Virus record (IMG/VR): IMGVR_UViG_3300042477_000769
From: a virus
Taxonomy: Duplodnaviria > Caudoviricetes
Strand: one strand, 5' to 3'
Length of the DNA: 64,000 nt
Both the position numbers and the translations under genes were made by a program. Under the pieces are notes generated by a model, which worked only from the letters and a program-made list of their open reading frames with translations, did no database searches and was not told the DNA's origin. This document shows positions 6,485 through 63,672 of this stretch, one piece after another. Position 1 is the first letter of the stretch. Each line of letters opens with the position of its first letter.

Positions 6485-6543
6485 AAATAGTAGAGGGTAA
6501 TCTGTTAGAGGCTACTGAACAATATATTGCTCATGATCTTTAG
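6478..6543 (+). pseudogene. 5' fragment of a macro-domain gene truncated by an IS end
   Basis: MLEIVEGNLLEATEQYIAH resembles a phage macro-domain N-terminus, then runs into IS left-end sequence and stops. Confidence 0.65.
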
Positions 6544-6574
6544 GCAAGGACACCCTCAGCCTTGTGCTGAGGGA
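6535..6574 (+). mobile_element. Isolated IS605-type left-end remnant
   Basis: 39/40 identical to 11993-12032, including hairpin CCCTCAGC-cttgt-GCTGAGGG. Confidence 0.9.
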
Positions 6575-11440: not shown

Positions 11441-11502
11441 CCGCATGCAATAACCCTGCCAACCGCCCGCGCTCCCAGCGACTAAATTTTTTTACGCGGA
11501 CC

Positions 11503-11531
11503 TTGACATACCGCTAAGGTGGGATTATATT
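11503..11531 (+). promoter_or_regulatory. Strong sigma70-like promoter for the repeat/tRNA locus
   Basis: TTGACA-17 nt-TATATT preceded by AAATTTTTTT tract. Confidence 0.75.
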
Positions 11532-11598
11532 TTAACCGTGTCAACAAGCAGAAGACAGAGCAGCAATGGAAGCTGGAATCCTTAAATATCCAGACTAT

Positions 11599-11673
11599 GT
11601 CTCCATGGTCTAATGGAAGGGCAGCGGGCTTCTAATCCGCTTTATGTAGGTTCGAGTCCTACTGGAGATGCCA
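11599..11673 (+). tRNA. tRNA-Arg(UCU)
   Basis: GTCTCCA/TGGAGAT acceptor, GCGGG-cttctaa-TCCGC anticodon arm, GTAGG-ttcgagt-CCTAC T arm, encoded CCA. Confidence 0.93.
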
Positions 11674-11992
11674 AGTGATAATTATCCCTAACAATGGAAG
11701 CTAGAATCCTTAAATATCTAGACGAGCAACCCTCTGTGGGCTGCAATGGAAGCTGGAATCCTTAAATATCCAGACTACGTAGGAACTTTATGATTAAATT
11801 AATTTACGACCAGGCAGTTGCCAAACTAAGTAACCAAAAAGATAATTTAGATCAATTAATTAAAGAAACTACAGGATCCGAAATTGGCAATTTTATCCAA
11901 AGGGTGTTGAGTTGGTATCATGATGAAACTAAGAAACAGTTCCTTTGGGAAATATTTAATAAAGTCTTTGATTTAAGTCCTGTTTTGTTCAT

Positions 11993-13264
11993 GATTTTTA
12001 GGCAAGGACACCCTCAGCCTTGTGCTGAGGGAGGAATTGCCTCTCCTTTCTGCTATCTAAATAATTTTTTCTTTTACACAAAACTTCCTATATTTATAGG
12101 ATATATCACTACATATGAGGTTAAATAGAACGGTCAAATTAAAACTTGATGTCAAGGCAGAAGAAATTCTACCTTCACTTCAGGCGTATACTGCTGCTTT
12201 TAATCTTGTCTGTCAAGTAGGTTACAAGAACAAAATAACTAATTCTATTAAACTGCATAAATTAACCTACCAAGATTGTCGAACTAACTTTAATTTACCG
12301 TCTCAATTAGCTATTTCTGCTAGAACTAAAGCCACTGAAGCTTTAAAAGCCATTAAGAGTAAAAATAAGTATAGTAAATGTCCACAGTCAAAGTTAGCTG
12401 CTATTCGACTAGATTGTAATAGCTACTCTATCGCTAAATCTGGAGTTGTATCTATTCTGACTCTTGCTGGCAGAAAGAAAATTAAACTAGATATTCCTAG
12501 ATATTATCAGCATTACTTTACTGATTGGAAATATACTAGTGCTGACCTTCTGATTAAGAAGAATACTGTCTATTTGCATATCTCTTTTGAGAAAGAAAGA
12601 GAAGACGTAAAATCAAACGGTAAGTTTTTAGGAATAGATCGAGGTATCAAAAAGTTAGCCGTTACTTCAGATAATAAGTTTTATTGCGGAAGTAAATTAA
12701 AGTCAATATGTAATAAATATAAAGCATTAAGAAGAAAATTACAGCAAAGTGGTAGTCAATCTGCTAAAAGACATCTTAAATACCTTTCAGGTAAAGAAAA
12801 ACGGTTTAAGGCAGACATTAACCATCAGATTAGCAAACAGATTATTAATAGTTTAAATCCAGGCGACACTCTAGTATTAGAAAAATTAACTGGTATTAGA
12901 AGATTACGTATGAGAAAACCTCAGAGATCAGCCTTGAATAGTTGGAATTATTATCAACTAGAGCAGTTCCTAATTTATAAAGGTCAGGCAAAAGGCATAC
13001 AAGTAGTCCATGTTAATCCTGCTTATACGAGTCAACAGTGCAGCAAATGCAATTATGTTGATAAGAAAAACAGGAAGACTCAAACTAACTTTTGTTGTCA
13101 AGGATGTGAATTTAAACTAAATGCAGACTTAAATGCTAGTAGAAATATTAGCAGACGAGCATTAGATGACTATATGTTGTTTAATGGGGCTGAAGTCAAT
13201 CAGCCTATGGTAGGAGCAGCGAAGCTACTTACAAGCCACCAGCCTTGTGCTGGTGGTAATTGAC
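11993..13264 (+). mobile_element. Non-autonomous IS200/IS605-family element (tnpB only)
   Basis: Left hairpin 12011-12031, right hairpin 13236-13256 with the same CTTGT loop, right end TTGAC, no target duplication. Confidence 0.88.
12115..13263 (+). CDS. tnpB: TnpB RNA-guided endonuclease
   Basis: RuvC GIDRG / LVLEKL / NADLNA intact; CSKC...CQGC finger. Confidence 0.92.
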   Translation: MRLNRTVKLKLDVKAEEILPSLQAYTAAFNLVCQVGYKNKITNSIKLHKLTYQDCRTNFNLPSQLAISARTKATEALKAIKSKNKYSKCPQSKLAAIRLDCNSYSIAKSGVVSILTLAGRKKIKLDIPRYYQHYFTDWKYTSADLLIKKNTVYLHISFEKEREDVKSNGKFLGIDRGIKKLAVTSDNKFYCGSKLKSICNKYKALRRKLQQSGSQSAKRHLKYLSGKEKRFKADINHQISKQIINSLNPGDTLVLEKLTGIRRLRMRKPQRSALNSWNYYQLEQFLIYKGQAKGIQVVHVNPAYTSQQCSKCNYVDKKNRKTQTNFCCQGCEFKLNADLNASRNISRRALDDYMLFNGAEVNQPMVGAAKLLTSHQPCAGGN

Positions 13265-13851
13265 GGATACTTTTCATGGTTTTGTGGTAAATTGTTTATT
13301 GGATGATTCTGCTTTTCGAGTAGAATATCGTAAGCTGTTTATAGACGAAAACTATGATTTGGTTTGGGAAAATAATGAACACAAAACGGTTCTTTCATCT
13401 AAAGATGACCCAGACTCAGATCCGGTTGTCATTTGGGATAATGATGGAACTCAAAAAGTATCTTTATTGATGGAAGCGATGGATCATGCTGAATTGCGCC
13501 ATCTGCGAAGGCAGCAACAGAACGAAAAAATAAAGGAAATGTTTAGCGAAATTCGCGGCAGCTCCTAGCAACTAAATTTTTTTTCTGCGCACTTAAGTAC
13601 ATCAATGGAAGCTGGAATCCTTAAATATTCAGACGTAGCGGCAGCAATGAAAGCTGGAATAGTTAAATATCCAAACAATATCCAGATGCAAAATCCGTGC
13701 CAAGGGGTGCGTCGCTGCTCCCAGCGACTAAATTTTTTTCTGCGTACCTAAGCACAGACGATCGGTATCTCCGTGTGGCATAGGTAGCGATGGAAGCTAG
13801 AATCCTTAAATATCTAGACAATGTCTAGAAAAAACAATAGAAAGGGCCTAC

Positions 13852-14273: not shown

Positions 14274-15407
14274 ATGGCAAAGAAAAAGCAAGATGAACAG
14301 GTAATGGCTACTTCGGACTTCAACCTAGAGAAGTTGAGCACCAAAGATTTATCAACCCACATCGCTTCGACTATTAAGGTTGGAGGAAATGTGGCGATCT
14401 TTGGCCGCAGAGGTACTGGTAAGACTGAAATCTCGAAACAAGAGATTAAGAAAGCCGAGGCTGCCGAGGTATACATTAACCTTTCCGTGATGGAACGAGT
14501 AGATTTGGGAGGATATCCCAATATCATGGGAGGTTCCTCGCAAAGGAAGTTTGTCGACTTCTTACTGCCGCAGTTCTATGAGCAGATGATTTCTGGTGAT
14601 AAACCAGTGGTTGCTCTTCTAGACGAAGTGGATAAGGCAGACCCCAGTCTGTGGGCGCCGTTACTAGAGTTTACTCAGTTCCATTCGATCAATGGTCAGA
14701 AACTCAATAACCTACAAGCCGTTATCATGACTGGTAACTTAATTTCTGAAGGTGGTATGCGTCCCAGTCTACCTCTCTTAGATAGAGCAGAGAAGTATCT
14801 AGTAGAAGCGGATGCTAACTCTTGGTTAGAGTGGGCTGGTAAGTCGGGACGGATTCATCCATCTATTACGGCCTATATTACGGATCATCCGAAGGACCTA
14901 TTTGGCGCAGTTGATCCAGAGGATCGTTATGCAGATCCTTCACCCCGAGGTTGGGCAGGAGCTTCTGAAATGCTCTTCAAGGGCGAAGAATTAGGTTGGG
15001 GAACAGACCTTCTGAATAAGAAGGTGTGTGGGCGTGTAGGTAAAGATGCTGGTATTAAGTACAGCAATTATTATGAGCACTACCAGCAGTTATTGCCGAT
15101 GGTCGATAAGATCTATCGCAACGAAGATGTGAGTCATGAGTATCGTGGTTTGGAGCCCACCAAGAAGCTGGTCATTTGTATGATTGTGTGTGCACGACTG
15201 GCATCTCTCCTTGACCAAGGTGCAAATAAGGCGAGTAAGGCAGCGATTACTCACGTAGGTAATTTTTTGAATAACGTGAGTCCAGAGTTATTATTGATTT
15301 CGGTGAGAAGTCAGATTCAATTGGAGCGGGTGATGAAACATAAGATGGATGACCACCCTGCTTGGGAACCATTCTTGGCCAAGTTGAATGCTTCGTTGAA
15401 GTCCTGA
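14274..15407 (+). CDS. MoxR-like AAA+ ATPase
   Basis: GRRGTGKT Walker A, LLDEVDK Walker B, PSPRGW. Confidence 0.88.
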   Translation: MAKKKQDEQVMATSDFNLEKLSTKDLSTHIASTIKVGGNVAIFGRRGTGKTEISKQEIKKAEAAEVYINLSVMERVDLGGYPNIMGGSSQRKFVDFLLPQFYEQMISGDKPVVALLDEVDKADPSLWAPLLEFTQFHSINGQKLNNLQAVIMTGNLISEGGMRPSLPLLDRAEKYLVEADANSWLEWAGKSGRIHPSITAYITDHPKDLFGAVDPEDRYADPSPRGWAGASEMLFKGEELGWGTDLLNKKVCGRVGKDAGIKYSNYYEHYQQLLPMVDKIYRNEDVSHEYRGLEPTKKLVICMIVCARLASLLDQGANKASKAAITHVGNFLNNVSPELLLISVRSQIQLERVMKHKMDDHPAWEPFLAKLNASLKS

Positions 15408-22691: not shown

Positions 22692-23801
22692 ATGAGTCAT
22701 TCAGTTATTGACACTATAGTTAAGCAAAGTCCTCATTTAAATTGGATAGATAATGGAACTTGTTTATTAGTTCGACATGGCTCTCATGCGTATGGAACTA
22801 ATACTGAATCTTCGGATGAAGATTTCAAAGGGATTACTATTCCTCCTTCGAGATATTTTCTAGGATACTTACAACGTTTTGAGCAGGCAGAATTAAAAGA
22901 TCCAGATGCGGTTATTTATGATATTAGGAAGTTTTTCCACTTAGCAGCGGATTGTAATCCCAATATTATTGAAGTTTTACATACGGATCCGGCCGACCAT
23001 TGTATTGTCTCTCCGATTGGAGAGATAATTTTGGATCATAAAAATGATTTTTTATCTAAAAAGGCTAAACATACATTTAGTGGTTATGCTATTAGTCAAT
23101 TACACCGAATCCAATCTCATAAAAGATGGATTATGAATCCGCCTCAGGCACCTCCAACCAGAAAAGAGTTAGGTTTACCGGAGCAAACTTTGATTCCGGC
23201 GGATCAATTAGCGGCGGCCGAAGCGGCAGTAAAAAAAGAATTAGATGCTATGTCTTTTGATTTTATGGATTCCTTGCAAGATTCTACTAAAATTGAAATT
23301 AAAAATGCTATGGCTAAATATTTATCGGAGCTGAAAATAACGGCTGATGAGCAATTTGCAGCTATGGCTCGAAAAATAGGATTTAATGATAATTTTATTG
23401 AAGTTATGGTGCAAGAGAGAAAATATTCTCAATTAAAGAGAGAGTTTGATCAATATCAAAGTTGGAAGCAAAATCGTAATCGTAAACGATTCGAATTAGA
23501 AGAAAAATTTGGTTATGATTGCAAACATGCGTATCATTTGGTAAGATTGCTGCGTATGTGTAAAGAAATGCTCTTAACAGGAAAAGTAATTGTTAAGCGA
23601 CCAGATCGAGAAGAGCTATTAGCCATTCGCAATGGAGCATGGACTTATGATCAATTAATTGAGTATGCTAAAACAGAAGAAAAATCACTAGATGAGTTGT
23701 ATTTACCTACGCAGGTTTTGCCTAAAACTCCTAATCAAATAAAATTAGACGAATTATGTGTCGATTTAGTTGAAAAACATTTCTTTTATGCAAGAAATTA
23801 A
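22692..23801 (+). CDS. Pol-beta superfamily nucleotidyltransferase
   Basis: HGSHAYGTNTESSDED, NPNIIEVL, KHAYHLVRL. Confidence 0.85.
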   Translation: MSHSVIDTIVKQSPHLNWIDNGTCLLVRHGSHAYGTNTESSDEDFKGITIPPSRYFLGYLQRFEQAELKDPDAVIYDIRKFFHLAADCNPNIIEVLHTDPADHCIVSPIGEIILDHKNDFLSKKAKHTFSGYAISQLHRIQSHKRWIMNPPQAPPTRKELGLPEQTLIPADQLAAAEAAVKKELDAMSFDFMDSLQDSTKIEIKNAMAKYLSELKITADEQFAAMARKIGFNDNFIEVMVQERKYSQLKREFDQYQSWKQNRNRKRFELEEKFGYDCKHAYHLVRLLRMCKEMLLTGKVIVKRPDREELLAIRNGAWTYDQLIEYAKTEEKSLDELYLPTQVLPKTPNQIKLDELCVDLVEKHFFYARN

Positions 23802-29305: not shown

Positions 29306-30277
29306 ATGTTAACAGTAACTTTAACCTGTGGAATTCCGGGTAGCGGAAAATCAACCTGGGCCAAAGAAGAAGTCAGTAAAGATCTAGATAACGTGACTAG
29401 AGTTAGTCGTGATGATTTGCGTGTCATGATGCATAATTATCATTTTTCATCTAGTAATGAAAAACTAGTTGTAGCGACGAAACTACATATAGTTCGTCAA
29501 GCTTTGCTAGCTAATAAACATGTTATTATCGATGAAACCAATTTAAATCCACGTAATTTCCAAGAAATTTGTAATTTAGTTAAATCTTTAAAGATAGATT
29601 GTCAAGTACAAGAAAAAGTATTCTTTCTCGAATTGGAAGAAGCTATTGCTAGAGATGCTCAACGTACTGGTCACTCTCATGTAGGCGAAAAAGTAATTCG
29701 CCAGTTTTGGTCCAAGTCAGGTAAAGATAATTTTAAAAATTACCAACCAAAAGTAGAAATATTCTCTCGACAGGTAGAGCCGGTTATGCCTCCTATAGTA
29801 CCTATAAATGTAAATTTGCCGCCCGCTGTGATTTGTGATTTGGATGGAACATTATCTTTATTTAATGTTAAGAAATTTGATGGCACTTCTGAGATGAGAC
29901 ATCCGGGAGCCCATTACCGATCACCTTATGATGCTTCTAACTGTGATGAAGATGCTGTTAATCTGCCTGTATTAACAGTCCTTAATTCGTTACATCAATT
30001 AGGAAACAAAATTATCTTTTGTTCAGGTCGAGAAGATAAATATCAGGATCCCACTGAGCGCTTTTTGAAAAAACATGTTACTTTTCCATATCAGTTGCAT
30101 ATGAGACAAACTGGCGATAATCGTAAAGATGCTCTTATTAAAGAAGAAATTTACCACCAGTATATTGCTCCTAATTATCGGGCCTTCTTAGTTATGGATG
30201 ATCGTTCCCAAGTCATTGCTTTATGGAGAAATAAATTAGGATTGCCGACCTTTCAGGTTAATGACGGTGATTTTTAA
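29306..30277 (+). CDS. pseT: Polynucleotide 5'-kinase/3'-phosphatase (T4 PseT-like)
   Basis: GIPGSGKST kinase; DLDGT and SGRE HAD phosphatase. Confidence 0.9.
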   Translation: MLTVTLTCGIPGSGKSTWAKEEVSKDLDNVTRVSRDDLRVMMHNYHFSSSNEKLVVATKLHIVRQALLANKHVIIDETNLNPRNFQEICNLVKSLKIDCQVQEKVFFLELEEAIARDAQRTGHSHVGEKVIRQFWSKSGKDNFKNYQPKVEIFSRQVEPVMPPIVPINVNLPPAVICDLDGTLSLFNVKKFDGTSEMRHPGAHYRSPYDASNCDEDAVNLPVLTVLNSLHQLGNKIIFCSGREDKYQDPTERFLKKHVTFPYQLHMRQTGDNRKDALIKEEIYHQYIAPNYRAFLVMDDRSQVIALWRNKLGLPTFQVNDGDF

Positions 30278-30677: not shown

Positions 30678-31922
30678 ATGTTATTAGTTCAGCAATTTTT
30701 ACGCAATAAGTCCTTTAAGCAATTACAAGAGCAACATGGAGTGTATGCTTCTTTTTCTAAAAGCGGCCATAAATGGTCCCTCAATTATGACCAAATTGAA
30801 GCGCAAGAATCAGACTTGTTGGCTCAACAATGTCGAGGTCTGATTTTATCAGCTCACGGCAAGTCACTTGCCTCACAAGCGATAGTGACTAATAAGAAAT
30901 TATCTTATGACCATCTTATTCCTGGAGAGACGCAAATTCTAGCTTATCCTATGAATAGATTTTTTAATTATGGTCAAGGTTCTGCTGCTAATATTAATTG
31001 GAATGACCCGAATTTAGCGATTCTAGAAAAATTAGACGGCACTTTATGTATTGTCTATTGGGATCCATTTACCACACAATGGTGTGTGGCTACTCGTTCT
31101 GTTCCAGAAGCAGATTTATTAATGGATAATGGTACTTTTACTTTTCGGTCGTTATTTGAAAAAGCGATTCAAGAGACGTTAAAAGTCTCATTTGAGACTT
31201 TTACGCTATCTCTTAACAAAGATTATACTTATTGTTTTGAATTAACTACACCGTATAATAGAATTGTGGTAGCTTATCAAACTTGCCAAATAACTTTATT
31301 AGCCGTACGTAATACTATTACTTTACAAGAAGTAAATTTACACCAACTAGATGTGGGTAATTTGCCCATAGTCAATAGTTATCAATTCTCCTCAATTAAT
31401 GATTTGGTGAGCTGGGTTCATTCTAGAAATCCAATGCAACATGAAGGAATTGTCGTTAGAGATTCTCTGTTTCAGAGAATTAAAATTAAAAATGCTGATT
31501 ATGTGGCTTATTCTAAGGCCAGAGATCATTTATCTGTTTCTTCTAGAAATTGTTTGCAAATCATCTTAAATGAAAAAGATGATGATGTTATTCCTTTCTT
31601 ACCCGAAGAAATAGTTAATAATCTTCAAAAGATTAAACATAATGTTAAACTTCTTATTAAAGAGTATGATGATTGCTTTAAAAGATCAAAAGAGCAGGCG
31701 GATTTAATTAATCCAGGAGATAAGAAAACATTTGCGTTAATTGTTACTAAAAATAAACACTATTGGTCTGCTCCCTTATTTGCTATGTTTGACGGTAAAG
31801 CTTCTAATATGAGAGATTTTATCCATCAAAACAGCAAAGAAGGAACTTGGTCTGCTTCATTTTTAGATAATTTATTAAAATTAATGGATATCTCACCTCA
31901 AGTTAGTGTATCAACTAATTAA
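30678..31922 (+). CDS. RNA ligase (T4 Rnl1-like)
   Basis: CRGLI, EKLDGT motif I, FEL, HEGIVVRD; near pseT. Confidence 0.85.
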   Translation: MLLVQQFLRNKSFKQLQEQHGVYASFSKSGHKWSLNYDQIEAQESDLLAQQCRGLILSAHGKSLASQAIVTNKKLSYDHLIPGETQILAYPMNRFFNYGQGSAANINWNDPNLAILEKLDGTLCIVYWDPFTTQWCVATRSVPEADLLMDNGTFTFRSLFEKAIQETLKVSFETFTLSLNKDYTYCFELTTPYNRIVVAYQTCQITLLAVRNTITLQEVNLHQLDVGNLPIVNSYQFSSINDLVSWVHSRNPMQHEGIVVRDSLFQRIKIKNADYVAYSKARDHLSVSSRNCLQIILNEKDDDVIPFLPEEIVNNLQKIKHNVKLLIKEYDDCFKRSKEQADLINPGDKKTFALIVTKNKHYWSAPLFAMFDGKASNMRDFIHQNSKEGTWSASFLDNLLKLMDISPQVSVSTN

Positions 31923-32680: not shown

Positions 32681-34015
32681 TCTCCTCGCCAGAATACCCA
32701 TAGCCTTGTGCTATGGGATGAATGGCGCACCTCCCTGTAACTTTCGATAAGTTTAATAGATAGTAAATTTTTACATCTTTTACTTTTTTGTGTAAAAATA
32801 TGCATACTATGAAATATAGTTATGCAGAAAGTGCTTAAAGGTTATAAATATCGTATCTACCCCACTGAGGAACAAAAGAAATTTTTGTCTCAACAGTTTG
32901 GATCTGTAAGATGGATCTATAATCATTTTCTTGCAAAACGTAAAGATGATTACCTTAACAATAAAAAAACATTAAACTATCATGATGATGCAAAAGCTCT
33001 TACTGAATTAAAATCTCAAGATGGTTATGAATGGTTATATAATATTAATTCTCAAACGCTTCAATCGGCTTTAAGAAATTTAGATTCCGCATATTTAAGA
33101 TTCTTTAAAAAGCAAGCTAGATTTCCTAACTTTCATAAAAAATCTAATCGGCAGTCTATTAAAATTCCACAGCATTTTAAAGTTGTTAGCAATTATTTGC
33201 ATATTCCAAAACTTAAAACTACTATAAAAATTAAACTTCATCAAAAACTACCAGAAAATAAAGAGTGTCTTTTTATTTCTAGAAATCCTTCTGGTGAATA
33301 TTATGCTGTTTTTCTTTGCGAAGTAGAAGTACAAGAACTACCAAAAAATAATATTTCTATAGGAATAGACTTAGGTCTAAAAGATTTAGTAATTACCTCT
33401 GAAGGAGCAGTTTTTCAAAATCATAAATTCTATAGAGCTTCAGAAAAGCAGCTAAAGTTTCAACAAATAAAATTATCTCGTAAGAAAAAAGGTTCTAAAA
33501 ATAGAAATAAACAACGAATCAAAATAGCTAAATTATATCAAAAAGTTTCTAATAAAAGATCAGATGAGTTACATAAGATAACTCATCAGCTAGTTAGCGA
33601 AAACCAAGTTATCATAGCCGAGAGTTTATCAGTTAAAAATATGATTAAAAATCATAAATTAGCAAAAAACATTCAAGATGCGTCTTGGGGAGAATTGATA
33701 AGACAGATAGAATATAAATCTAAATGGTACGGTAGAACTTTTCATCAGATAGATAAATTTTTTCCAAGTAGTAAAACTTGTAATTCTTGTCAATTTGTGA
33801 TTGATGTGTTACCTCTAAATATTAGAGAGTGGGATTGCCCAAAATGCAATCGGCATCATGACAGAGATTTAAATGCTGCTTTGAATATCAAAGATAAAGG
33901 TTTAAAAGACTTGGGGTTATGGAACGTAACCCCGCATCAAAAACTTAGTGAGGCGTCAGCAATAGCTGAGTCTATGACCTAAGAAGCCACTACCTTTATG
34001 GTAGTGGTAGTTCAC
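32679..34015 (+). mobile_element. Non-autonomous IS605-family element (tnpB only)
   Basis: Left hairpin CCCATAGC-cttgt-GCTATGGG (32697-32717); right hairpin CCACTACC-tttat-GGTAGTGG; ends TTCAC. Confidence 0.85.
32822..33982 (+). CDS. tnpB: TnpB (IS605 OrfB with N-terminal HTH)
   Basis: YKYRIYP, GIDLG, IIAESL, CNSC...CPKC, DRDLNAA. Confidence 0.93.
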   Translation: MQKVLKGYKYRIYPTEEQKKFLSQQFGSVRWIYNHFLAKRKDDYLNNKKTLNYHDDAKALTELKSQDGYEWLYNINSQTLQSALRNLDSAYLRFFKKQARFPNFHKKSNRQSIKIPQHFKVVSNYLHIPKLKTTIKIKLHQKLPENKECLFISRNPSGEYYAVFLCEVEVQELPKNNISIGIDLGLKDLVITSEGAVFQNHKFYRASEKQLKFQQIKLSRKKKGSKNRNKQRIKIAKLYQKVSNKRSDELHKITHQLVSENQVIIAESLSVKNMIKNHKLAKNIQDASWGELIRQIEYKSKWYGRTFHQIDKFFPSSKTCNSCQFVIDVLPLNIREWDCPKCNRHHDRDLNAALNIKDKGLKDLGLWNVTPHQKLSEASAIAESMT

Positions 34016-42949: not shown

Positions 42950-43723
42950 ATGTCTAATAAATTAAAAGATAGAATTGCTTCGTATTATGAAGCCAGCGAC
43001 TATCGATTACTTAATCGAGTTCCGCTTATTATTTGCTTAAATGGAAGGAATTTTTCTAAAAATACCGAGTTATTAGATAAGCCCTTTTGTAACATTTTTT
43101 CTGAATGTATGATTTCTACCACTTTACGATTATGCTCTGAAGTAGAAGGCTGTATTTTTGCCTATCAACATAATGATGAAATTGTGTTAGCTCTTCGTAA
43201 TGATCAAAATAACGAGACTGCTCCTTGGTATGATAATAAATTACAAAAAATATGTTCCTTAACGGCAGCCATTTCTTCTTTGCATTTTTTAAATGCTAGT
43301 TTACAGGCAGAATTAAACTTGATAGGAAACCCTATTTTTCTATCTCAAGTATTTGTAGTCCCTAATGTGGTAGAGGCCATTAATACCTTAATTTTAAAAC
43401 AACAGCAAAATTTTCATACTTCGATTCAATTTGCTTGCTTTTATGAATTATTAAAAAAATATGACAAACATAACATTAAAGACATGTTAAATGGTTTAAG
43501 TATTGATGAAAAAATTGATCTGTTAAAACAAGAAGTGGATATTGATTTTAATAGTTATCCTCTGGCTTTTCGAAGAGGCGTGGCTTGTTATAAAGTCCCT
43601 CGTATTACTAATGATGGTTCTACTAAAAATAAATGGACCATTAACCATGAATTACCTATTTTTACTAAGGATCAGTCCTTCTTGTCAAATATTTTTAAAA
43701 ATGGCGCCGATATTTTTAGGTAA
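42950..43723 (+). CDS. tRNA-His guanylyltransferase (Thg1)-like protein
   Basis: LNGRNFS, YQHNDEI, KLQKICS. Confidence 0.75.
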   Translation: MSNKLKDRIASYYEASDYRLLNRVPLIICLNGRNFSKNTELLDKPFCNIFSECMISTTLRLCSEVEGCIFAYQHNDEIVLALRNDQNNETAPWYDNKLQKICSLTAAISSLHFLNASLQAELNLIGNPIFLSQVFVVPNVVEAINTLILKQQQNFHTSIQFACFYELLKKYDKHNIKDMLNGLSIDEKIDLLKQEVDIDFNSYPLAFRRGVACYKVPRITNDGSTKNKWTINHELPIFTKDQSFLSNIFKNGADIFR

Positions 43724-43816: not shown

Positions 43817-44169
43817 GGGGATAATATAGATTCGACGTAGTTTGACATAATAGTATGCAGGTCCCTGATGATTGCCAGAGGGTTAACACAGCAATCAACG
43901 TATAAATGCTAACGATAATGCATTTGCTCCACAAGCTCTTGTAGCTTGATTGGATAGTCTAAGAAGAGATTTCTTTGGTATTCTACTAGGCTATTAACCA
44001 CTAAAGATAGATGTAATCTTGGTTACGGATGTTACATTAAATTACACAGTATCTAGCCGGGATGGGCGAATCCAAACAATGTTGATTAGTACATTAAACT
44101 AATCTAAACTTGTGAATGAATTCTATTTATGGATAATTGCGGACGGTGGGGCAGTGCCACCTATCTCCG
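43817..44169 (+). ncRNA. ssrA: tmRNA, tag (A)ANDNAFAPQALVA
   Basis: GGGGATA/TATCTCC acceptor with G3-U, GATTCGAC, tag ORF 43908-43949 after ATAAAT, T arm GGTGG-ggcagtg-CCACC. Confidence 0.92.
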
Positions 44170-44215
44170 CTATTAATTTCTCATCATCTCCACTCAAAGT
44201 GATATATAGTTTCTT

Positions 44216-54153: not shown

Positions 54154-54500
54154 CTAAATTATTTACAGAACAAATTAAAAAGAAACTTCTCTCTGACCAA
54201 GAAGAGATCTTACAGAGAGTTTCCCATCGAGCAGATGTTGATACCGATGGCGATGAAGGTGATGAAATACAAGGTAATATGATTATTGAAATGCAAAATC
54301 AATTAAATTCTCGAGATCGAGACAAATTATCCAAAATTACTGAAGCCTTATCTCGAATTGATACTCAAGAATATGGAATCTGTGAAGATTGTGGAGAAGA
54401 AATTTCAGAAAAAAGATTAAATATCAACCCACATTTCATTACATGTATTCTTTGTGCAGAAACTAGAGAGATCGAACAAAAACAGAAACGGAGAGTGTGA
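54147..54500 (+). CDS. dksA: DksA/TraR C4 zinc-finger protein
   Basis: DEGDE coiled-coil tip, ALSRI...YGICEDCGEEI...CILC. Confidence 0.88.
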   Translation: MLTKLFTEQIKKKLLSDQEEILQRVSHRADVDTDGDEGDEIQGNMIIEMQNQLNSRDRDKLSKITEALSRIDTQEYGICEDCGEEISEKRLNINPHFITCILCAETREIEQKQKRRV

Positions 54501-54501
54501 A

Positions 54502-55086
54502 TTGAATACTATTGTATTAGAAGCTACTGAGCATGGCGATATGCCAATTGATGTGTATCAAAAACTTTCTAATGATAGAATTCTCTTTATCTCTGATGAG
54601 ATTCATGATTCATTAGCGGCAGATATTGCAGCTACTCTTTTGCTAAAGGATGCTGAAGATTCAGATAAGAAAATTACTTTATTTATCAATTCACATGGCG
54701 GAGATATTCGTAATGTTTTGATGATTTGTGATATGATGAATATGATTTCCGCGCCTATTGAGACTGTCTGTGTTGGATCGGCGATGGATGAAGCGGCTAT
54801 TATTTTATCTTCTGGAACTCCTGGCATGAGATTCGCCACAAAAAATGCAGTTATTTCTGCTGGTCAATTAGTTAATACTTGGATGGTCAGATCTAATTTA
54901 ACAGATGCCAAAAAGAATTTGGAGCTTATTACTACTGATAATAAAAGAATGATGGAAATTCTAGCCAAAACTTCTAATAAAACTCTTAAACAGGTTATGT
55001 CTCATTTTGAGAGGCGAGTGTTTATGAATTCGCATCAAGCGATGAAATTTGGTTTAATTGACAAGGTAGTAGCTCTCAAAAAATGA
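54502..55086 (+). CDS. ClpP-fold protein lacking catalytic Ser/His (ClpR-like)
   Basis: DRILFI, FINSHGG; GSAMDEAA and ISAGQ replace GxAASM and MIHQP. Confidence 0.8.
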   Translation: MNTIVLEATEHGDMPIDVYQKLSNDRILFISDEIHDSLAADIAATLLLKDAEDSDKKITLFINSHGGDIRNVLMICDMMNMISAPIETVCVGSAMDEAAIILSSGTPGMRFATKNAVISAGQLVNTWMVRSNLTDAKKNLELITTDNKRMMEILAKTSNKTLKQVMSHFERRVFMNSHQAMKFGLIDKVVALKK

Positions 55087-55676
55087 GGAAAAATATGAAA
55101 AACCATTCTGAACATTTAGCTATGCCCCATTTTTCAAGGTATTCTGACACTTATATTAAATTATCTAAACATAGAGTGATCTTTGTGGCTGAAGATTTTA
55201 CCGCTAAAATGGGAGCCGATTTGTCGGCGGTGTTATTATATTTAGACCATGAAGATCATGCCGCTCCTATTGAAATTTATATTCATTCTCAAGGGGGTGA
55301 AATTTCTGGATTATTTAATATTTATGATGTTATTCAGATGATTTCCGCTCCAGTTAAAACTATCTGTGTTGGTAAATGTTATTCTGCTGGAGCAATGTTA
55401 TTGGCCGCCGGAACCAAAGGGCAACGTTTTGCCATGAAAAATTCTAGCATTATGATTCATGGAATTCAAATGGGATTTCCTATTCCAGGAGAAGATACGA
55501 CCAATTCTAAGAATTTATTTAAATATTTAGAAGAGCATAATGATAGTTTTATTAAAATATTAGCTAATCATACTGGACATTCTTTCGAAAAAGTCAAACA
55601 AGATTGTTTGCAAGATTTATGGATGACGCCAAAACAAGCCTTAGAGTATGGGATTATTGATGGAATAATCCAGTAA
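55083..55676 (+). CDS. clpP: ClpP protease proteolytic subunit
   Basis: YIHSQGG, CYSAG (Ser), IMIHG (His), QDLWM (Asp), YGIID. Confidence 0.9.
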   Translation: MRKNMKNHSEHLAMPHFSRYSDTYIKLSKHRVIFVAEDFTAKMGADLSAVLLYLDHEDHAAPIEIYIHSQGGEISGLFNIYDVIQMISAPVKTICVGKCYSAGAMLLAAGTKGQRFAMKNSSIMIHGIQMGFPIPGEDTTNSKNLFKYLEEHNDSFIKILANHTGHSFEKVKQDCLQDLWMTPKQALEYGIIDGIIQ

Positions 55677-55703: not shown

Positions 55704-56921
55704 TTATAGAATAATATTCCATAACTTATTTTTATAAGGTTTTAATCTTATTGGCTGAACTAATACAGCCTCTATCCCATTGCTAAAAGCGTCTGGGATT
55801 TCCTTTCTTAATATATTATAAGAGCCATTTACATCAGCATTTATTGTTATTCCAGATTTAGATCTAAATAAACCTCTTGTTAATCTTCTTCCCATATATT
55901 TTTTATGCTTTTTAATAGACTCTAAATCTAGAAAACTACATTTACTAGTATAGCTTTCTTCTCTCTCTACAATATCTATTCCCTCTAAAGCACATTTATA
56001 TTTTAACATCTCAAAAAATTTCCGATGTGGAATATTGACAAAATTTTGATTATTTTTATCACCCATATTAGTCTCTTGTTTCCAGGATTTATTGTGTCCG
56101 ATAACTAATTTAGACACTCCATGAGAAACTAAATGATTAACTAAATATCGGCTAGCTTTATGCATATAATCAGATATTTTATCATTTCGCTTAGAAGTAA
56201 GTTTTTTAATTTGTTTTGAAGTTTTTTGCTCTCCTGTTAATTTAGATTGTAATTCAGATCGTTTTTTATTATAAAACTGATTTATAGATTTTAATGGCCC
56301 TCCTGGAATTATAATAGGAGACCCTTTTGTAAAGGTAACTGTTGCCAAATTAGCGACTCCAGGATCTAAAGCAGCAATAACAGTACCTTTAGATTTAGTT
56401 TTTTCGGTTTTATTATAGACTATTTCAACGGTATGGTACATATCACCTGGAGTGATTCTCACTTGACAAATATCTTTATGTAGAATTTTTGTTGGTAATG
56501 GTAATTCTGCAATCCCAGAAGGTGACATTTTTTTCTTAGATATGGCTTGAGAAGTAAAAATTAATAAATTTCTACCTTTAGTTTTATGCTTAAAACCTGG
56601 TAATTTTGGAGTAGAAGTAAATTTACTAGGGTTCTTCTTAAAAGATTTAAGGGCTTTAAAAAAGTTTTTAAAAGCATTATCAACTTGAATTAATACATGT
56701 TGAGCGACTTTAGCTGGTAAAGCTCGATAATCTATTTGTTTTTCTAAAGCGAACTGCTTATCTAAGGCATGATATCCTAGGTAAGTTCTAGTCATTTCAA
56801 AATGTTTTCTAAATGCATAGACAGCAGAATTATAAAGATTCTTTGATAAAAACAACTTATAATCAATAAGTTTTCCTTTGAAGGATTTTTTATTTATTCT
56901 ATGTCTTTCTACTAACTGCAT
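55704..56921 (-). CDS. tnpB: TnpB with rearranged RuvC-II (track marks it +; it is -)
   Basis: MQLVERH start, ALDPGV, VIGHN..WKQ, REESYTS, NADVNG. Confidence 0.88.
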   Translation of the reverse strand: MQLVERHRINKKSFKGKLIDYKLFLSKNLYNSAVYAFRKHFEMTRTYLGYHALDKQFALEKQIDYRALPAKVAQHVLIQVDNAFKNFFKALKSFKKNPSKFTSTPKLPGFKHKTKGRNLLIFTSQAISKKKMSPSGIAELPLPTKILHKDICQVRITPGDMYHTVEIVYNKTEKTKSKGTVIAALDPGVANLATVTFTKGSPIIIPGGPLKSINQFYNKKRSELQSKLTGEQKTSKQIKKLTSKRNDKISDYMHKASRYLVNHLVSHGVSKLVIGHNKSWKQETNMGDKNNQNFVNIPHRKFFEMLKYKCALEGIDIVEREESYTSKCSFLDLESIKKHKKYMGRRLTRGLFRSKSGITINADVNGSYNILRKEIPDAFSNGIEAVLVQPIRLKPYKNKLWNIIL

Positions 56922-58647: not shown

Positions 58648-58701
58648 TTATTTAAAAATTAATTTTTAAATTCAACCGCGTTTTTTAAACGATGGCATCC
58701 C

Positions 58702-58729
58702 TTGCCAACGTATTTATACTGTTTATCTT
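58702..58729 (+). promoter_or_regulatory. Sigma70-like promoter preceded by a 22-bp palindrome (58650-58671)
   Basis: TTGCCA-16 nt-TATCTT; ATTTAAAAATT/AATTTTTAAAT. Confidence 0.45.
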
Positions 58730-58742
58730 ATACAGACGCCAC

Positions 58743-59744
58743 ATGGAAATAGTTAATAATTTCAATACATTACTTAGGGCATTTAAAATTGATGCTAATT
58801 GCATTAATTACAAACAAATAGATAATTATTTTTATTATGATATTAAACTAAATCACAAAACTAAAGTAAAAGATCTCCAGAAATATGGAGACGAACTATC
58901 GTTAGCCTTAAAAACTCCATGTAAACCAAGTTTGAAGGTACTTCATCATGACGGAATTGTTCGTTTAGAGTTTGCCTCTCCTAGGTCTACTAAATTAAAT
59001 CTCTTCGATCTATTCTCTAATAGATCCTTACCTAAAGGACAAGTTAATTGTTTGCTTGGTCAATCAGTAGATGGTAAAAAAATATGGATGGATTTGGCGC
59101 AGAACCCGCATTTGATAGTAGCAGGTACTACTGGCTCTGGCAAAAGTACTTTAATTCATACCATTATTGCAAATTTATTTAATTATAATGATGTAGATGT
59201 GATCTTAGTTGATCCAAAAGGAATTGAATTCATAGCTTATGAAAAAGCTTTTCCTAATATTGAAATTATTTATACTTATCAACAAGCTTTAAGTATGTTA
59301 TCGGCGGTTTATGAGACCATGGAATTTCGATACTCTAGAATGCGAGCCGGAGTATCCTTAGATAATTTCAAAAATCTCATTATTATTATTGATGAATTTG
59401 CTGATCTCATCATGCAAGATGAAGGAAATGAATTATATTCAGTGTTATTAAAACTTTCTCAAAAATGTCGAGCTGCCCGTATCAATATCATTTTAGCAAC
59501 TCAACGCCCCTCCGTCAAGATTATTGACGGAAATATCAAAGCCAATTTTCCGGCTCGTATTTGCTGTCGAGTAGCCAGCCACGTAGATTCCAAAGTGGTA
59601 TTTGATTCTGTTGGTGCGGAAAATTTATTAGGTAATGGAGATGCAATGTTAAGAGATAACTTTAGAAGTATGGAGCGATTTCAAGTCGCCTATACTAATC
59701 CGGCTGAAATTATTTCGTATTTTGGAAATAATCATGGATTTTAA
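58743..59744 (+). CDS. ftsK: FtsK/SpoIIIE motor-domain protein (no membrane domain)
   Basis: PHLIVAGTTGSGKS, DPKG, IDEFADL, ATQRP, LLGNGD. Confidence 0.9.
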   Translation: MEIVNNFNTLLRAFKIDANCINYKQIDNYFYYDIKLNHKTKVKDLQKYGDELSLALKTPCKPSLKVLHHDGIVRLEFASPRSTKLNLFDLFSNRSLPKGQVNCLLGQSVDGKKIWMDLAQNPHLIVAGTTGSGKSTLIHTIIANLFNYNDVDVILVDPKGIEFIAYEKAFPNIEIIYTYQQALSMLSAVYETMEFRYSRMRAGVSLDNFKNLIIIIDEFADLIMQDEGNELYSVLLKLSQKCRAARINIILATQRPSVKIIDGNIKANFPARICCRVASHVDSKVVFDSVGAENLLGNGDAMLRDNFRSMERFQVAYTNPAEIISYFGNNHGF

Positions 59745-61869: not shown

Positions 61870-63672
61870 ATGAGTAGTTCAAAAACATTAGTAATTGTAG
61901 AATCTCCTTCCAAGGCTGATAAAATACAGTCTTATTTAGGTAAAGATTATATTGTACTGGCTAGTAAAGGGCATATTACAGATTTAGCCAAGGGTGGAAA
62001 ACATGGTTTAGGAGTAGATGTAGATAATAATTTTAAGCCTCATTATGTGTTAATGGAAGATAAACTATCTATTTTAGATAATCTTTTGCAAGCTGCTAAA
62101 AAAGTAGATAAAATTTTAGTCGCTAGCGACCCTGATCGAGAAGGCGAAGCGATTGCTTGGCATCTAGCTCAACGATTAGATGGGACAGATAAACCTATTA
62201 AACGAATGGTTTTTAATGAAATTAAAAAAGATAAATTACTCAAATCTGTTAAAGATGTGAGAGATATTGATTTAAATCTCTTTCATTCTCAAGAAGCTAG
62301 GAGAATATTAGACCGTTTAGTTGGGTTTATGGCTTCTCCATTTTTAATGAATTTCTTTGGCCCCAAACTCTCCGCAGGAAGAGTGCAGTCAGTAGTGACT
62401 CGTATGGTAATTGATAGAGAAAGAGAGATTGAATCTTTTACTCCAGAAGATTTTTGGACTATTCAAACTACGTTAACTACTAAAAATAAAGAAAGTTTCA
62501 CTGCAAAATATACTCAAAAAATAACTGATGCTGCCACTGCAGATCAGGTGAAAAAAGAATTGTTATCTTCTGACTATATAATTTCAGAAGTTCTTAGCAA
62601 AGAAGAGAAAGTATATCCTCAGCCACCGTTAGTAACTTCTACTTTACAACGAATTATGTCTAAAAATCATGGTTTTGGAGCAGAAAAAACCATGAAAGCA
62701 GCGCAAGCGTTATATGAATCAGGTTATTGCACCTATATTAGAACCGACTCTGTCAGAGTCGGAGATGAGGCTTTACAAGAAGTTAGGCAATGGTTAGCCG
62801 ATAATACTTATGAAGTTCCTAAAAAACCTTATACCTATAAGAATAAAGATGCCGCTCAGGACGCTCATGAATGTATTCGACCTTCAGATTTAACCTTATT
62901 GCCAGGGCAGAATTATGCTATTCTAGATCCTGATGAAAAATTAGTGTATGAAACTATTTGGAAATATTTTGTAGCAAGTCAAATGATGCCGGCCGTGTAT
63001 GATACGCTGTCTGTCACGGCTCATCCTATTAATAATAGTAATTTTAAAGTTAAAGCCAGCGGTAAAGCTTTGAAAATAAAAGGATATATGGAGATTTTAG
63101 GAGTACAAGATGCTAATAGTATTGATATTCCTAACTTAGCAGTTAACGATCTCGTTTCCTTAGTTGGAAAAAATCCGGTGAAAGTAGATAAAAAGCAAAC
63201 TCAACCGCCCCCACGATTTTCAGAAGATAAGCTAATTAAGGAATTAGTTAATAAAAATATTGGTCGGCCCGCTACTTATGCGGACTTATTAAGTAAAATT
63301 ACGGCAAGAAATTATGTAGAAAAAAAGGGGAATGTTTACCACGCTACCGAATTAGGTAAGAAAATAACCGATGAATTAATTAGGTATTTTTCTTTCATGG
63401 ATTATGATTATACTGCCAAGATGGAATCTCAATTAGATGAGGTGGAGTCGGGTAAAATTAATCATTTAGATATGTTAAAACAATTCTTCCCCGCTTTCAA
63501 ACAAGAATTAAATAACGCTTATGTCAACCATGGCAGTACATTGTGCGACAAGTGCGGAAGTCCTATGGCGGTTAGAAACACTAAAACGGGGGAAAAGTTT
63601 TTAGGATGTTCTAGTTATCCTAAATGTAAAAATACGTTAGAGTTAACACATAACAAGAAAGAACGAGTATAA
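61870..63672 (+). CDS. topA: DNA topoisomerase I (type IA)
   Basis: VESPSKA, DPDREGE, SAGRVQS, TYIRTDS, GIGRP-like NIGRPATY, C-terminal Zn ribbon. Confidence 0.96.
   Translation: MSSSKTLVIVESPSKADKIQSYLGKDYIVLASKGHITDLAKGGKHGLGVDVDNNFKPHYVLMEDKLSILDNLLQAAKKVDKILVASDPDREGEAIAWHLAQRLDGTDKPIKRMVFNEIKKDKLLKSVKDVRDIDLNLFHSQEARRILDRLVGFMASPFLMNFFGPKLSAGRVQSVVTRMVIDREREIESFTPEDFWTIQTTLTTKNKESFTAKYTQKITDAATADQVKKELLSSDYIISEVLSKEEKVYPQPPLVTSTLQRIMSKNHGFGAEKTMKAAQALYESGYCTYIRTDSVRVGDEALQEVRQWLADNTYEVPKKPYTYKNKDAAQDAHECIRPSDLTLLPGQNYAILDPDEKLVYETIWKYFVASQMMPAVYDTLSVTAHPINNSNFKVKASGKALKIKGYMEILGVQDANSIDIPNLAVNDLVSLVGKNPVKVDKKQTQPPPRFSEDKLIKELVNKNIGRPATYADLLSKITARNYVEKKGNVYHATELGKKITDELIRYFSFMDYDYTAKMESQLDEVESGKINHLDMLKQFFPAFKQELNNAYVNHGSTLCDKCGSPMAVRNTKTGEKFLGCSSYPKCKNTLELTHNKKERV

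Follow-up and report, generated by a model that had tools for sequence, protein, structure and literature searches.

Introduction

In the early genes of phage T7, RNase III sites form irregular duplexes of ~50-60 nucleotides (nt), which are cut by host RNase III. Small H-type pseudoknots occur in 5′ leaders, examples being the preQ1-I riboswitch aptamer and the autoregulatory pseudoknot of T4 gene 32. T4-like phages carry promoter-early stem-loop cassettes (PeSLs) (Arbiol et al. 2010, PMC2839356; Comeau et al. 2014, PMC4122927). Type III antitoxins (ToxI, CptI and TenpI) comprise tandem ~36-nt pseudoknot repeats, with a terminator and the gene for a toxin of the ToxN fold (PMC5086642, PMC3475682). 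Solitary repeat units (SRUs) are defined by their match to a known CRISPR repeat and by being solitary (Camara-Wilpert et al. 2023, PMC10651486). Here we describe a repeat, motif B, in a 64-kb stretch of the phage record IMGVR_UViG_3300042477_000769 (hereafter the window) and compare it with these systems.

Motif B is a 32-nt core with six copies on the sense (+) strand of the window. An earlier note on this DNA had taken the copies for CRISPR-like hairpin repeats and proposed a candidate RNA anti-CRISPR or RNA-processing system. The CRISPR analogy was not supported by our analysis. We tentatively read motif B as a cis-acting structured RNA, a punctuation signal for processing or stability, which would belong with a second repeat, motif A, to a regulatory cassette of this lineage of giant lake phages.

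Results

Motif B recurs in front of genes and tRNAs

Pattern search found motif B at 11564, 11692, 11744, 13603 and 13788, each with 0-1 mismatch and all on the + strand. A repeat finder (family D15) added a decayed copy with 4 mismatches at 13645, and the two methods together bear out the six copies reported before. No further copy was found in the 64-kb window, and 100 dinucleotide-preserving shuffles gave zero. Scored with a covariance model, the six copies reached 48-61 bits and the rest of the window at most 13 bits. The gaps between consecutive cores are 96, 20, 1827, 10 and 111 nt.

Copy 1 (11564-11595; 60.7 bits) has the CTGGA/TCCAG stem and lies 3 nt upstream of a tRNA-Arg gene. Copy 2 (11692-11723) is of the CTAGA/TCTAG type, and copy 3 (11744-11775) lies 14 nt upstream of the ATG of a gene for a 168-aa protein. 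In copy 4 (13603-13634) the stem holds a G·U wobble, CTGGA/TTCAG. The decayed copy 5 (13645-13676; 48 bits) has its 4 mismatches in such places that helix S1 (see below) is broken and the closing pair of helix S2 is lost. Copy 6 (13788-13819) lies 32 nt upstream of a 98-aa gene, which heads a conserved block of 98-aa, AAA and VWA-metallopeptidase genes. Four of the copies share the 5′ flank G[CT][AT]G-C; the alignment thus confirmed the extension G(C/T)(A/T)G described earlier. Identity between copies 1 and 3 reaches 95% over a stretch of 41 nt, flanks included.

Motif B was also found in three IMG/VR contigs, G001-G003 (72-129 kb; CheckV completeness 17-28%). Seven strong copies lie in G002, which brings the total with the window to 13 copies in ~190 kb. 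G001-G003 do not overlap window 28-64 kb, and G002 comes from metagenome 3300035663, which also has the window locus at 100% identity. The three contigs may be another part of the window's genome, or a sister strain, of a ~450-kb megaphage.

All 13 copies are intergenic and have the orientation of the next gene or tRNA. Three of the seven G002 copies lie within a tRNA array (Glu, Gly, Leu, Leu, Asn, Thr). Another stands between a TTGACA-16-TAACTT promoter, which ends 10 nt ahead of it, and the start of the EF-Ts gene, which follows after 15 nt, and one on the opposite strand is 9 nt ahead of the start of a divergent Kelch-like gene. A divergent pair of motif B copies flanks the EF-Ts promoter region. 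One G002 copy follows an operon that contains GroES, and one lies 83 nt downstream of a motif A copy. In total, two copies (window copy 1 and the EF-Ts copy) are 10-32 nt downstream of TTGACA-16/17-TAnnnT promoters, and four are 20-83 nt downstream of motif A.

Several features of G002 adjoin these copies. Besides EF-Ts, the contig encodes a GroES (Cpn10) homologue 1.1 kb further along (L017 5416-7721). The longest EF-Ts open reading frame (ORF) would begin at the ATG of motif B; the start preceded by a Shine-Dalgarno sequence comes 15 codons later. In the array, the two tRNA-Leu genes have an HNH endonuclease gene between them (L002 12990-13460). The end of this gene is inside a truncated motif B, of which only the 3′ half GTTAAATATCTAGAA is present, as if the gene had been inserted into a copy or had replaced it. 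A third repeat, C (TGAATGC...GATTACATT...GGATAAAAA), has a 9-11-bp hairpin and a T run, and is found after tRNAs and before motif B copies in G002 (L002 12920-12990 and 13775-13850; L001 1640-1760).

Substitutions in motif B preserve RNA pairing

Positions in motif B were numbered from the A of ATGG, and variation from copy to copy was treated as paralogous. Helix S2 (8-12 with 24-28, 5 bp) was paired in 98.5% of cells. Its pair 10/26 is G-C in 6 rows and A-U in 7, and the reported co-variation between CTGGA/TCCAG and CTAGA/TCTAG was reproduced. Pairs 11/25 and 12/24 are G·U in two rows each, where the opposite strand would have C·A. The observed covariation score was reached by 0 of 500 shuffles. 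The earlier note had argued for selection on structure, and this holds: all changes in the 5-bp stem keep pairing, including the wobbles that pair on the sense strand only. Pairs preserved by compensatory and wobble changes on the transcribed strand, here in paralogous copies, are what a structured cis-regulatory RNA would show.

Helix S1 (1-5 with 14-18) is weak in its common form. The most divergent copy, on the minus strand of L016, has 6 substitutions, none of them in S2. In S1, four of these replace A-U and U·U by C-G. In simulation, the chance that S1 and S2 would be fully paired after six random substitutions was 0.0066. The same copy has lost the ATG and retained both helices, which argues for RNA structure rather than coding. 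In the L017 copy, A·A at 6/13 has become G-C (chance 0.012, simulation). The interleaved arrangement of S1 and S2 is that of an H-type pseudoknot, in which AG, A and AAAUA are the loops. From these patterns, formation of the 5-bp hairpin S2 is well supported, and S1 and S2 together probably form an H-type pseudoknot with the A-rich third loop AAAUA.

An upstream helix S0 (-4 to -1 with 7-10) was tried as well; it was only 69% paired and was not adopted. The nucleotide that lies 4 nt upstream of the core is complementary to position 10 (C-G or T-A) in all six window copies and in 3 of the 7 G002 copies. Position 10 also pairs with 26, and the upstream pairing in 9 of 13 copies hints at two competing folds.

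Motif B does not behave as a CRISPR repeat

The CRISPR-like reading, and the RNA anti-CRISPR role that was proposed with it, failed on several counts. Motif B had no match in Rfam, CRISPR direct repeat (CRISPR-DR) families included, even at E≤10. Among 185,579 prokaryote species genomes (one representative each), an exact 24-mer had 0 matches, and a 28-nt free-stem pattern gave ten single, chance-level matches with no array and no second copy. The earlier note had called for a search of the 36-nt repeat; the genome searches with the 24-mer and the 28-nt pattern, which needed a near-exact core and which repeats with another loop or 5′ arm would escape, found no relative. No Cas family was detected by Pfam in 49 window ORFs, which include every ORF of at least 200 aa. 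The three TnpB genes are IS200/605 passengers with insertion sequence ends of their own.

The arrangement of the copies led to the same conclusion. A CRISPR array has regular, unique spacers of ~20-45 nt. Here the gaps are irregular, range from 10 to 1827 nt and hold a tRNA, a gene and motif A. An SRU has no second copy within 100 bp, but copies 2 and 3 are 20 nt apart and copies 4 and 5 are 10 nt apart. The match to a CRISPR repeat that also defines SRUs was not found in Rfam or the species genomes, with the host unidentified and no dedicated repeat collection among the databases. The earlier note would have counted occurrence of the motif upstream of ordinary genes against its own proposal, and in part this is what we observed, with copies before EF-Ts, Kelch-like and unknown ORFs and in the tRNA array. 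The window locus is a false lead for phage CRISPR mimics and should not be counted among them.

Motif A and the promoters ahead of motif B

Motif A consists of CCCAGCGACTAARTTTTKT, 7-8 nt and CCTAR, and has window copies at 11471, 13561 and 13717, all on the + strand. Copy 1 (11471-11503; core CCCAGCGACTAAATTTTTT at 11474-11492) is directly upstream of a sigma-70-like promoter, TTGACA-17-TATATT (11503-11531, + strand; 11/12 matches), which is the best such site in the region. A near-consensus sigma-70 promoter ahead of the motif B copies, as described earlier, is therefore present. Copy 2 (13561-13593) has 2 core mismatches, and copy 3 (13717-13749) has its 5′ part in a 7-bp hairpin (13711-13728) followed by a T run. 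Only at copy 1 is the downstream block TTGACA, with TATATT 17 nt on. The sequences at 13561 and 13717, previously called a decayed promoter, are not decayed copies of the TTGACA promoter; they are copies of motif A instead.

G002 has 22 copies of motif A, all on one strand. Many are 15-60 nt upstream of small ORFs with Shine-Dalgarno sequences, and one pair flanks a tRNA-Leu. The layout of motif A plus TTGACA-17-TATATT recurs once there, ~1.3 kb ahead of the array's first tRNA. Most motif A copies have no recognisable -35/-10 pair, and non-conserved hairpins lie ahead of most of them. Motif A and motif B have a common TAAAT core and the same layout.

A GC-rich stretch of G002 (~22-27 kb) holds 14 motif A copies within 5 kb (L091 300-3019, L101 2538-2870). 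Some of the G002 copies form arrays of 80-90-nt units without ORFs, in which the sequences between motifs are alike. These arrays could be small RNA genes or tandem promoter units.

Relatives share the gene order and lack the motifs

The AAA protein of the window led to 18 related viral loci at 63-76% identity, several of them in genomes of 350-452 kb. Many of these relatives have a tRNA array (Leu, Glu, Arg and others) ahead of the homologous AAA gene, with tRNA spacers of mostly 3-13 nt. In the relative that was read in detail (L032), the array precedes the same block of 98-aa, AAA and VWA-metallopeptidase genes. Motif B was found in none of the seven more distant relatives G004-G010, which have the syntenic tRNA array and four of which are 97-100% complete, either by pattern or by covariance model run on whole genomes. 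The model (R1) gave only weak matches of at most 21 bits, and the best three were rejected since they lie inside coding sequence (an IMPDH-like gene and others). Motif A was found in 0 of 4 relatives searched. Relatives that share the synteny, with AAA proteins at 68-76% identity, are thus without motif B, which makes motif B an added, lineage-specific signal. As we read it, the window locus is a remnant of the relatives' tRNA array with one tRNA left, re-punctuated by motifs A and B, which only this lineage has.

Wider searches agreed with this restriction. Motif B was absent from JGI metagenome contigs apart from two pattern matches, which lie within coding sequence, have no stem and were rejected as chance. 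The window locus had no blastn match among INPHARED phages. Nothing relevant on the sequence strings of motifs A and B was found in the literature.

The tRNA and the interrupted 168-aa gene

The remaining tRNA, tRNA-Arg(UCU), lies at 11599-11673 (+), 3 nt after motif B copy 1. Behind copy 3, the 168-aa gene is split into a 5′ part (11790-11992, +) and a 3′ part (13265-13568, +) by an IS200/605-type element (11993-13264, +), an unrelated passenger. The element is 1272 bp long, was inserted after a TCAT target and has the right end ...TTGAC. Its TnpB ORF (12115-13263) matches Pfam OrfB_IS605 and Cas12f1-like_TNB, and loose ends fall precisely at 13264 in three DNA runs. Once the element is removed, the reading frame is 168 aa, and intact homologues (P0002-P0007, 154-168 aa) cross the junction LFM|DTF. 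The earlier account of what lies between the cores is accordingly right for the tRNA and the 20-nt and 10-nt segments, and right for the 168-aa gene only with the TnpB element taken out.

The 168-aa protein has no Pfam family, and its AlphaFold model (predicted local distance difference test, pLDDT, 73) has no PDB match at E≤0.001. Its homologues sit in phage gene runs without repeats. We considered a type III toxin-antitoxin system because ~36-nt pseudoknot repeats precede a gene of ~170 aa. This candidate was rejected: the repeats are dispersed, 14 nt without a terminator separate them from the gene, and the protein has no ToxN-like family or fold.

Six further assemblies of the window locus are 99.97-100% identical, hence there was no strain variation to use. 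An apparent deletion joint (11492 to 13718) has only 21 nt on its left side, inside motif A, and was discarded as a repeat alignment artefact.

Full TnpB genes are present at window 12115-13263, 32822-33982 and 55704-56921 (minus strand). Left ends related to that of the TnpB element lie at 6527 and 32671. The former belongs to a solo piece (6527-6574) that is 96% identical to 11985-12032 and is fused to coding sequence for MORN/HREDGPA repeats.

Other genes of the window

The window encodes a kit for the repair and rescue of RNA and tRNA, with an RlaP-family nucleotidyltransferase, a PNKP kinase-phosphatase, a T4 Rnl1-type RNA ligase, a Thg1-like protein and a transfer-messenger RNA (tmRNA), at 22692-23801, 29306-30277, 30678-31922, 42950-43723 and 43817-44172. 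This kit suggests that hosts attack tRNAs or mRNAs. At 1019-2494, WGR, PARP regulatory and PARP catalytic domains form the architecture of a eukaryote-type poly(ADP-ribose) polymerase in a phage. Two adjoining genes for ClpP-family proteases (54454-55676) are near an FtsK/HerA-type ATPase (58692-59744) and a type IA topoisomerase (61870-63672).

Discussion

A proposed punctuation signal

Transcription of motif B would run in the sense direction and would begin at upstream promoters, namely the sigma-70-like TTGACA sites and possibly also motif A. We infer that its RNA folds compactly, with the 5-bp hairpin and probably the pseudoknot. A phage or host ribonuclease or another RNA-binding factor, acting in trans, may read this fold together with the invariant single-stranded bases. 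Such recognition, with or without cleavage, would separate the segments of mixed tRNA-mRNA transcripts, stabilise them, or both. The earlier note's proposal that the repeats divide a transcript with a tRNA and mRNAs is plausible. Motifs A and B may together make up a lineage-specific cassette, in which motif B is an extra leader element of some transcription units. The repeated copies could also supply homology for the gain and loss of cassettes, and near-empty 'cargo' of 20 nt and 10 nt would be left behind. The contexts of motif B mix tRNAs (Arg, Leu, Asn) and mRNAs (EF-Ts, Kelch-like and unknown ORFs), and for this reason an RNA-level signal fits better than a gene-specific translational operator.

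Several results count against a punctuation signal and keep our reading tentative. S1 contains a U·U mismatch in 12 of 13 copies. As a plain hairpin, motif B is no more stable than its shuffles in any copy (z ~0). The covariation derives from few independent events, in paralogous copies possibly of one genome. It is because the thermodynamics are unremarkable and the independent events few that we call the hairpin well supported and the pseudoknot probable. RNA runs at the locus gave a single metatranscriptome contig, at 14897-15064 in the AAA gene, and none over motif B. No candidate for the trans factor was identified. Finally, TAAATA within motif B is -10-like, and together with the layout of hairpin then motif it would also suit a promoter cassette.

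Promoter and antitermination

The main rivals are a role as a promoter and a role in antitermination. As a DNA-level promoter for a phage sigma factor or RNA polymerase, motif B would have TAAATA as a -10-like core and a start near the terminal AC, in terminator-promoter cassettes of the PeSL kind with hairpins. TAAATA is comparable to the T4 late promoter TATAAATA. The 30 near-invariant nt are orientation-specific and upstream of genes and tRNAs, often with a hairpin in front, and motif A has the same layout and the TAAAT core. PeSLs themselves are a stem-loop plus promoter motifs flanking variable genes (PMC4122927). We nevertheless consider a promoter unlikely. Compensatory changes in two helices, with G·U tolerated, would not be expected of a double-stranded promoter. 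At spacings of 42 and 52 bp, polymerases on neighbouring copies would be stacked, and the mRNA from the L016 minus-strand copy would start 1-2 nt before its Shine-Dalgarno sequence. The 10-nt spacing of the candidate boxes is off sigma-70-type geometry, and a mere 13 copies occur in ~190 kb. Sigma-70, sigma-54 and extracytoplasmic function (ECF) promoters inside motif B were each rejected on inspection, since the box spacings are unsuitable; there was only a weak match to TAGAAT.

An antitermination signal comparable to nut/put or rrn boxA-boxB is quite unlikely. It would work as a nascent hairpin that loads a factor on the polymerase, or acts on the polymerase directly, so that hairpins and T runs are read through. 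In rrn operons the antiterminator is repeated after spacer tRNAs. Motif B likewise lies downstream of promoters and ahead of hairpin/T-run elements and recurs after each, these elements being motif A copy 3 at 13711-13738 and the GTAATTGAT...ATCAATTAC-AATTTTTG hairpins of the G002 tRNA array. The motif B loop AUCCUUAAAUA is like boxA, UGCUCUUUAACAA, at 7 of 11 positions, which we treat as a lead only. However, the boxA-like bases would be partly buried in S1, and nut sites offer no parallel to tandem copies at distances of 10 and 20 nt. Most of the downstream hairpins do not have the form of canonical terminators, and no N- or Q-like protein was identified.

There is likewise a slim chance that motif B is an undescribed class of phage RNA pseudoknot with a dedicated reader. 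It could be a 'self' tag, by which a phage-encoded RNA-processing or RNA-repair enzyme marks the tRNA and mRNA precursors of the phage, or a small switch that senses a ligand or protein.

Cassette boundary, decoy, mini-ORF and operator

Motif B might have no RNA function of its own. Its copies flank single tRNAs and single genes, the 20- and 10-nt intervals resemble deletion scars, and the G002 HNH gene ends in a truncated copy (L002 ~13420-13455). It could then be the boundary of a mobile cassette, kept alike by recombination or gene conversion, as the 95% identity of copies 1 and 3 over 41 nt would suggest, or the target of a homing endonuclease. We regard this as very unlikely, because strict co-orientation with genes and the pairing-preserving substitutions would be left unexplained. 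No variant genome with a B-to-B deletion was seen, and the sole apparent joint was the 21 nt of motif A. A boundary role is compatible with a punctuation signal and does not exclude it.

We give little credence to an RNA decoy against a host defence that is RNA-guided or cuts RNA. The decoy could mimic a CRISPR repeat (an RNA anti-CRISPR, Racr), a type III antitoxin, or an anticodon loop offered to an anticodon nuclease. Motif B is promoter-proximal, multicopy, structured and ~36 nt long, and the RNA-repair kit suggests that hosts attack phage RNAs. Type III antitoxins are ~36-nt pseudoknots, and phage TE escapes ToxIN by pseudo-ToxI repeats (PMC5086642). Against this stand the negative searches of CRISPR-DR families (E≤10) and of the 185,579 species genomes for an array or second copy. 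The copies are neither solitary like SRUs nor tandem like type III antitoxins. The gene that follows the repeats shows neither a family nor a fold like that of ToxN, and repeats are missing from its homologues. A decoy would also not need a position before EF-Ts or between tRNAs.

Even less credible is a leader mini-ORF, Met-Glu-Ala-(Gly/Arg)-Ile-Leu-Lys-Tyr-(Pro/Leu/Ser)-Asp plus 1-38 codons, whose translation would be coupled to the downstream gene. The ATG is kept in 12 of 13 copies, the frame of copy 3 ends in a TGA that overlaps the ATG of the 168-aa gene (ATGA), and the EF-Ts copy is in frame with EF-Ts. The L017 copy has 3 synonymous changes and one Ile-to-Leu change, and the changes in the decayed copy are conservative. 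But no consistent Shine-Dalgarno sequence lies upstream, and synonymous sites are 4 of 12 variable sites, about the random expectation (counted on the alignment). The radical Gly/Arg and Pro/Leu changes are exactly those that compensate base pairs, tRNA-adjacent copies have nothing to couple to, and the divergent copy without an ATG keeps both helices.

Highly improbable, finally, is a DNA operator for a dimeric phage repressor binding the inverted repeat CTRGA-N11-TCYAG: the half-sites co-vary symmetrically and lie just downstream of promoters, but three copies have asymmetric half-sites that still pair by G·U in RNA, the half-site centres are 16 bp apart on opposite helix faces, the asymmetric 5′ arm and loop are the most conserved parts, the orientation is always that of the gene, and the distance to the promoter ranges from 10 to >70 nt.

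Significance

Giant phages bring along tRNAs, translation factors and enzymes of RNA repair, and very little is known of how the expression of these is organised. Motif A lies ahead of many small genes, motif B in certain leaders and around tRNAs; this pair of signals, absent from the sequenced relatives, would offer a handle on the transcript architecture of an uncultured phage of ~450 kb. Motif B may also represent a new, compact RNA fold that has a specific partner, and it could serve as a processing tag if cleavage were confirmed.

Comparison with known systems

Of the RNA anti-CRISPRs, SRUs (PMC10651486) resemble motif B in being intergenic, promoter-proximal, ~36-nt hairpin units in phages without cas genes (here, in the scanned ORFs). 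Motif B differs in that it is clustered, matches no repeat that we found and precedes housekeeping-type genes. Type III antitoxins also consist of repeated RNA units of ~36 nt, which are pseudoknots excised by an endoribonuclease, and phages can carry mimics of them.

The pseudoknots of preQ1-I and T4 gene 32 are similar to motif B in size (~30 nt) and to its probable fold in build, with two helices of 5 bp, a first loop that is short and a third that is rich in A. Several motif B copies also lie just upstream of a Shine-Dalgarno sequence. However, neither the preQ1-I family RF00522 nor any other Rfam family matched motif B at E≤10, and its second loop, a single A, is too short for a preQ1 pocket, whose loop contains the specificity C. 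Unlike these leader pseudoknots, motif B is multicopy, flanks tRNAs and leaves the Shine-Dalgarno sequence unsequestered.

With the RNase III sites of T7, motif B has in common that repeated structured RNA signals follow early promoters or lie between genes. Those of T7 cut the polycistronic transcript and leave stabilising structures. As a hairpin or pseudoknot of 28-30 nt, motif B is too short for RNase III, and its cleavage is only proposed.

Like motifs A and B, PeSLs are lineage-specific, near-identical intergenic motifs. PeSLs join a stem-loop to a promoter, lie on either side of small variable genes and supply the homology by which modules are shuffled, and motifs A and B may do likewise. 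The likeness is seen in two places, where motif A and TTGACA-17-TATATT have a non-conserved hairpin in front. No rearrangement mediated by motif A or B was observed here. Compared with PeSLs, motif B is an extra 30-nt element downstream of the promoter, with two compensating helices; it flanks tRNAs and is not itself a sigma-70 promoter.

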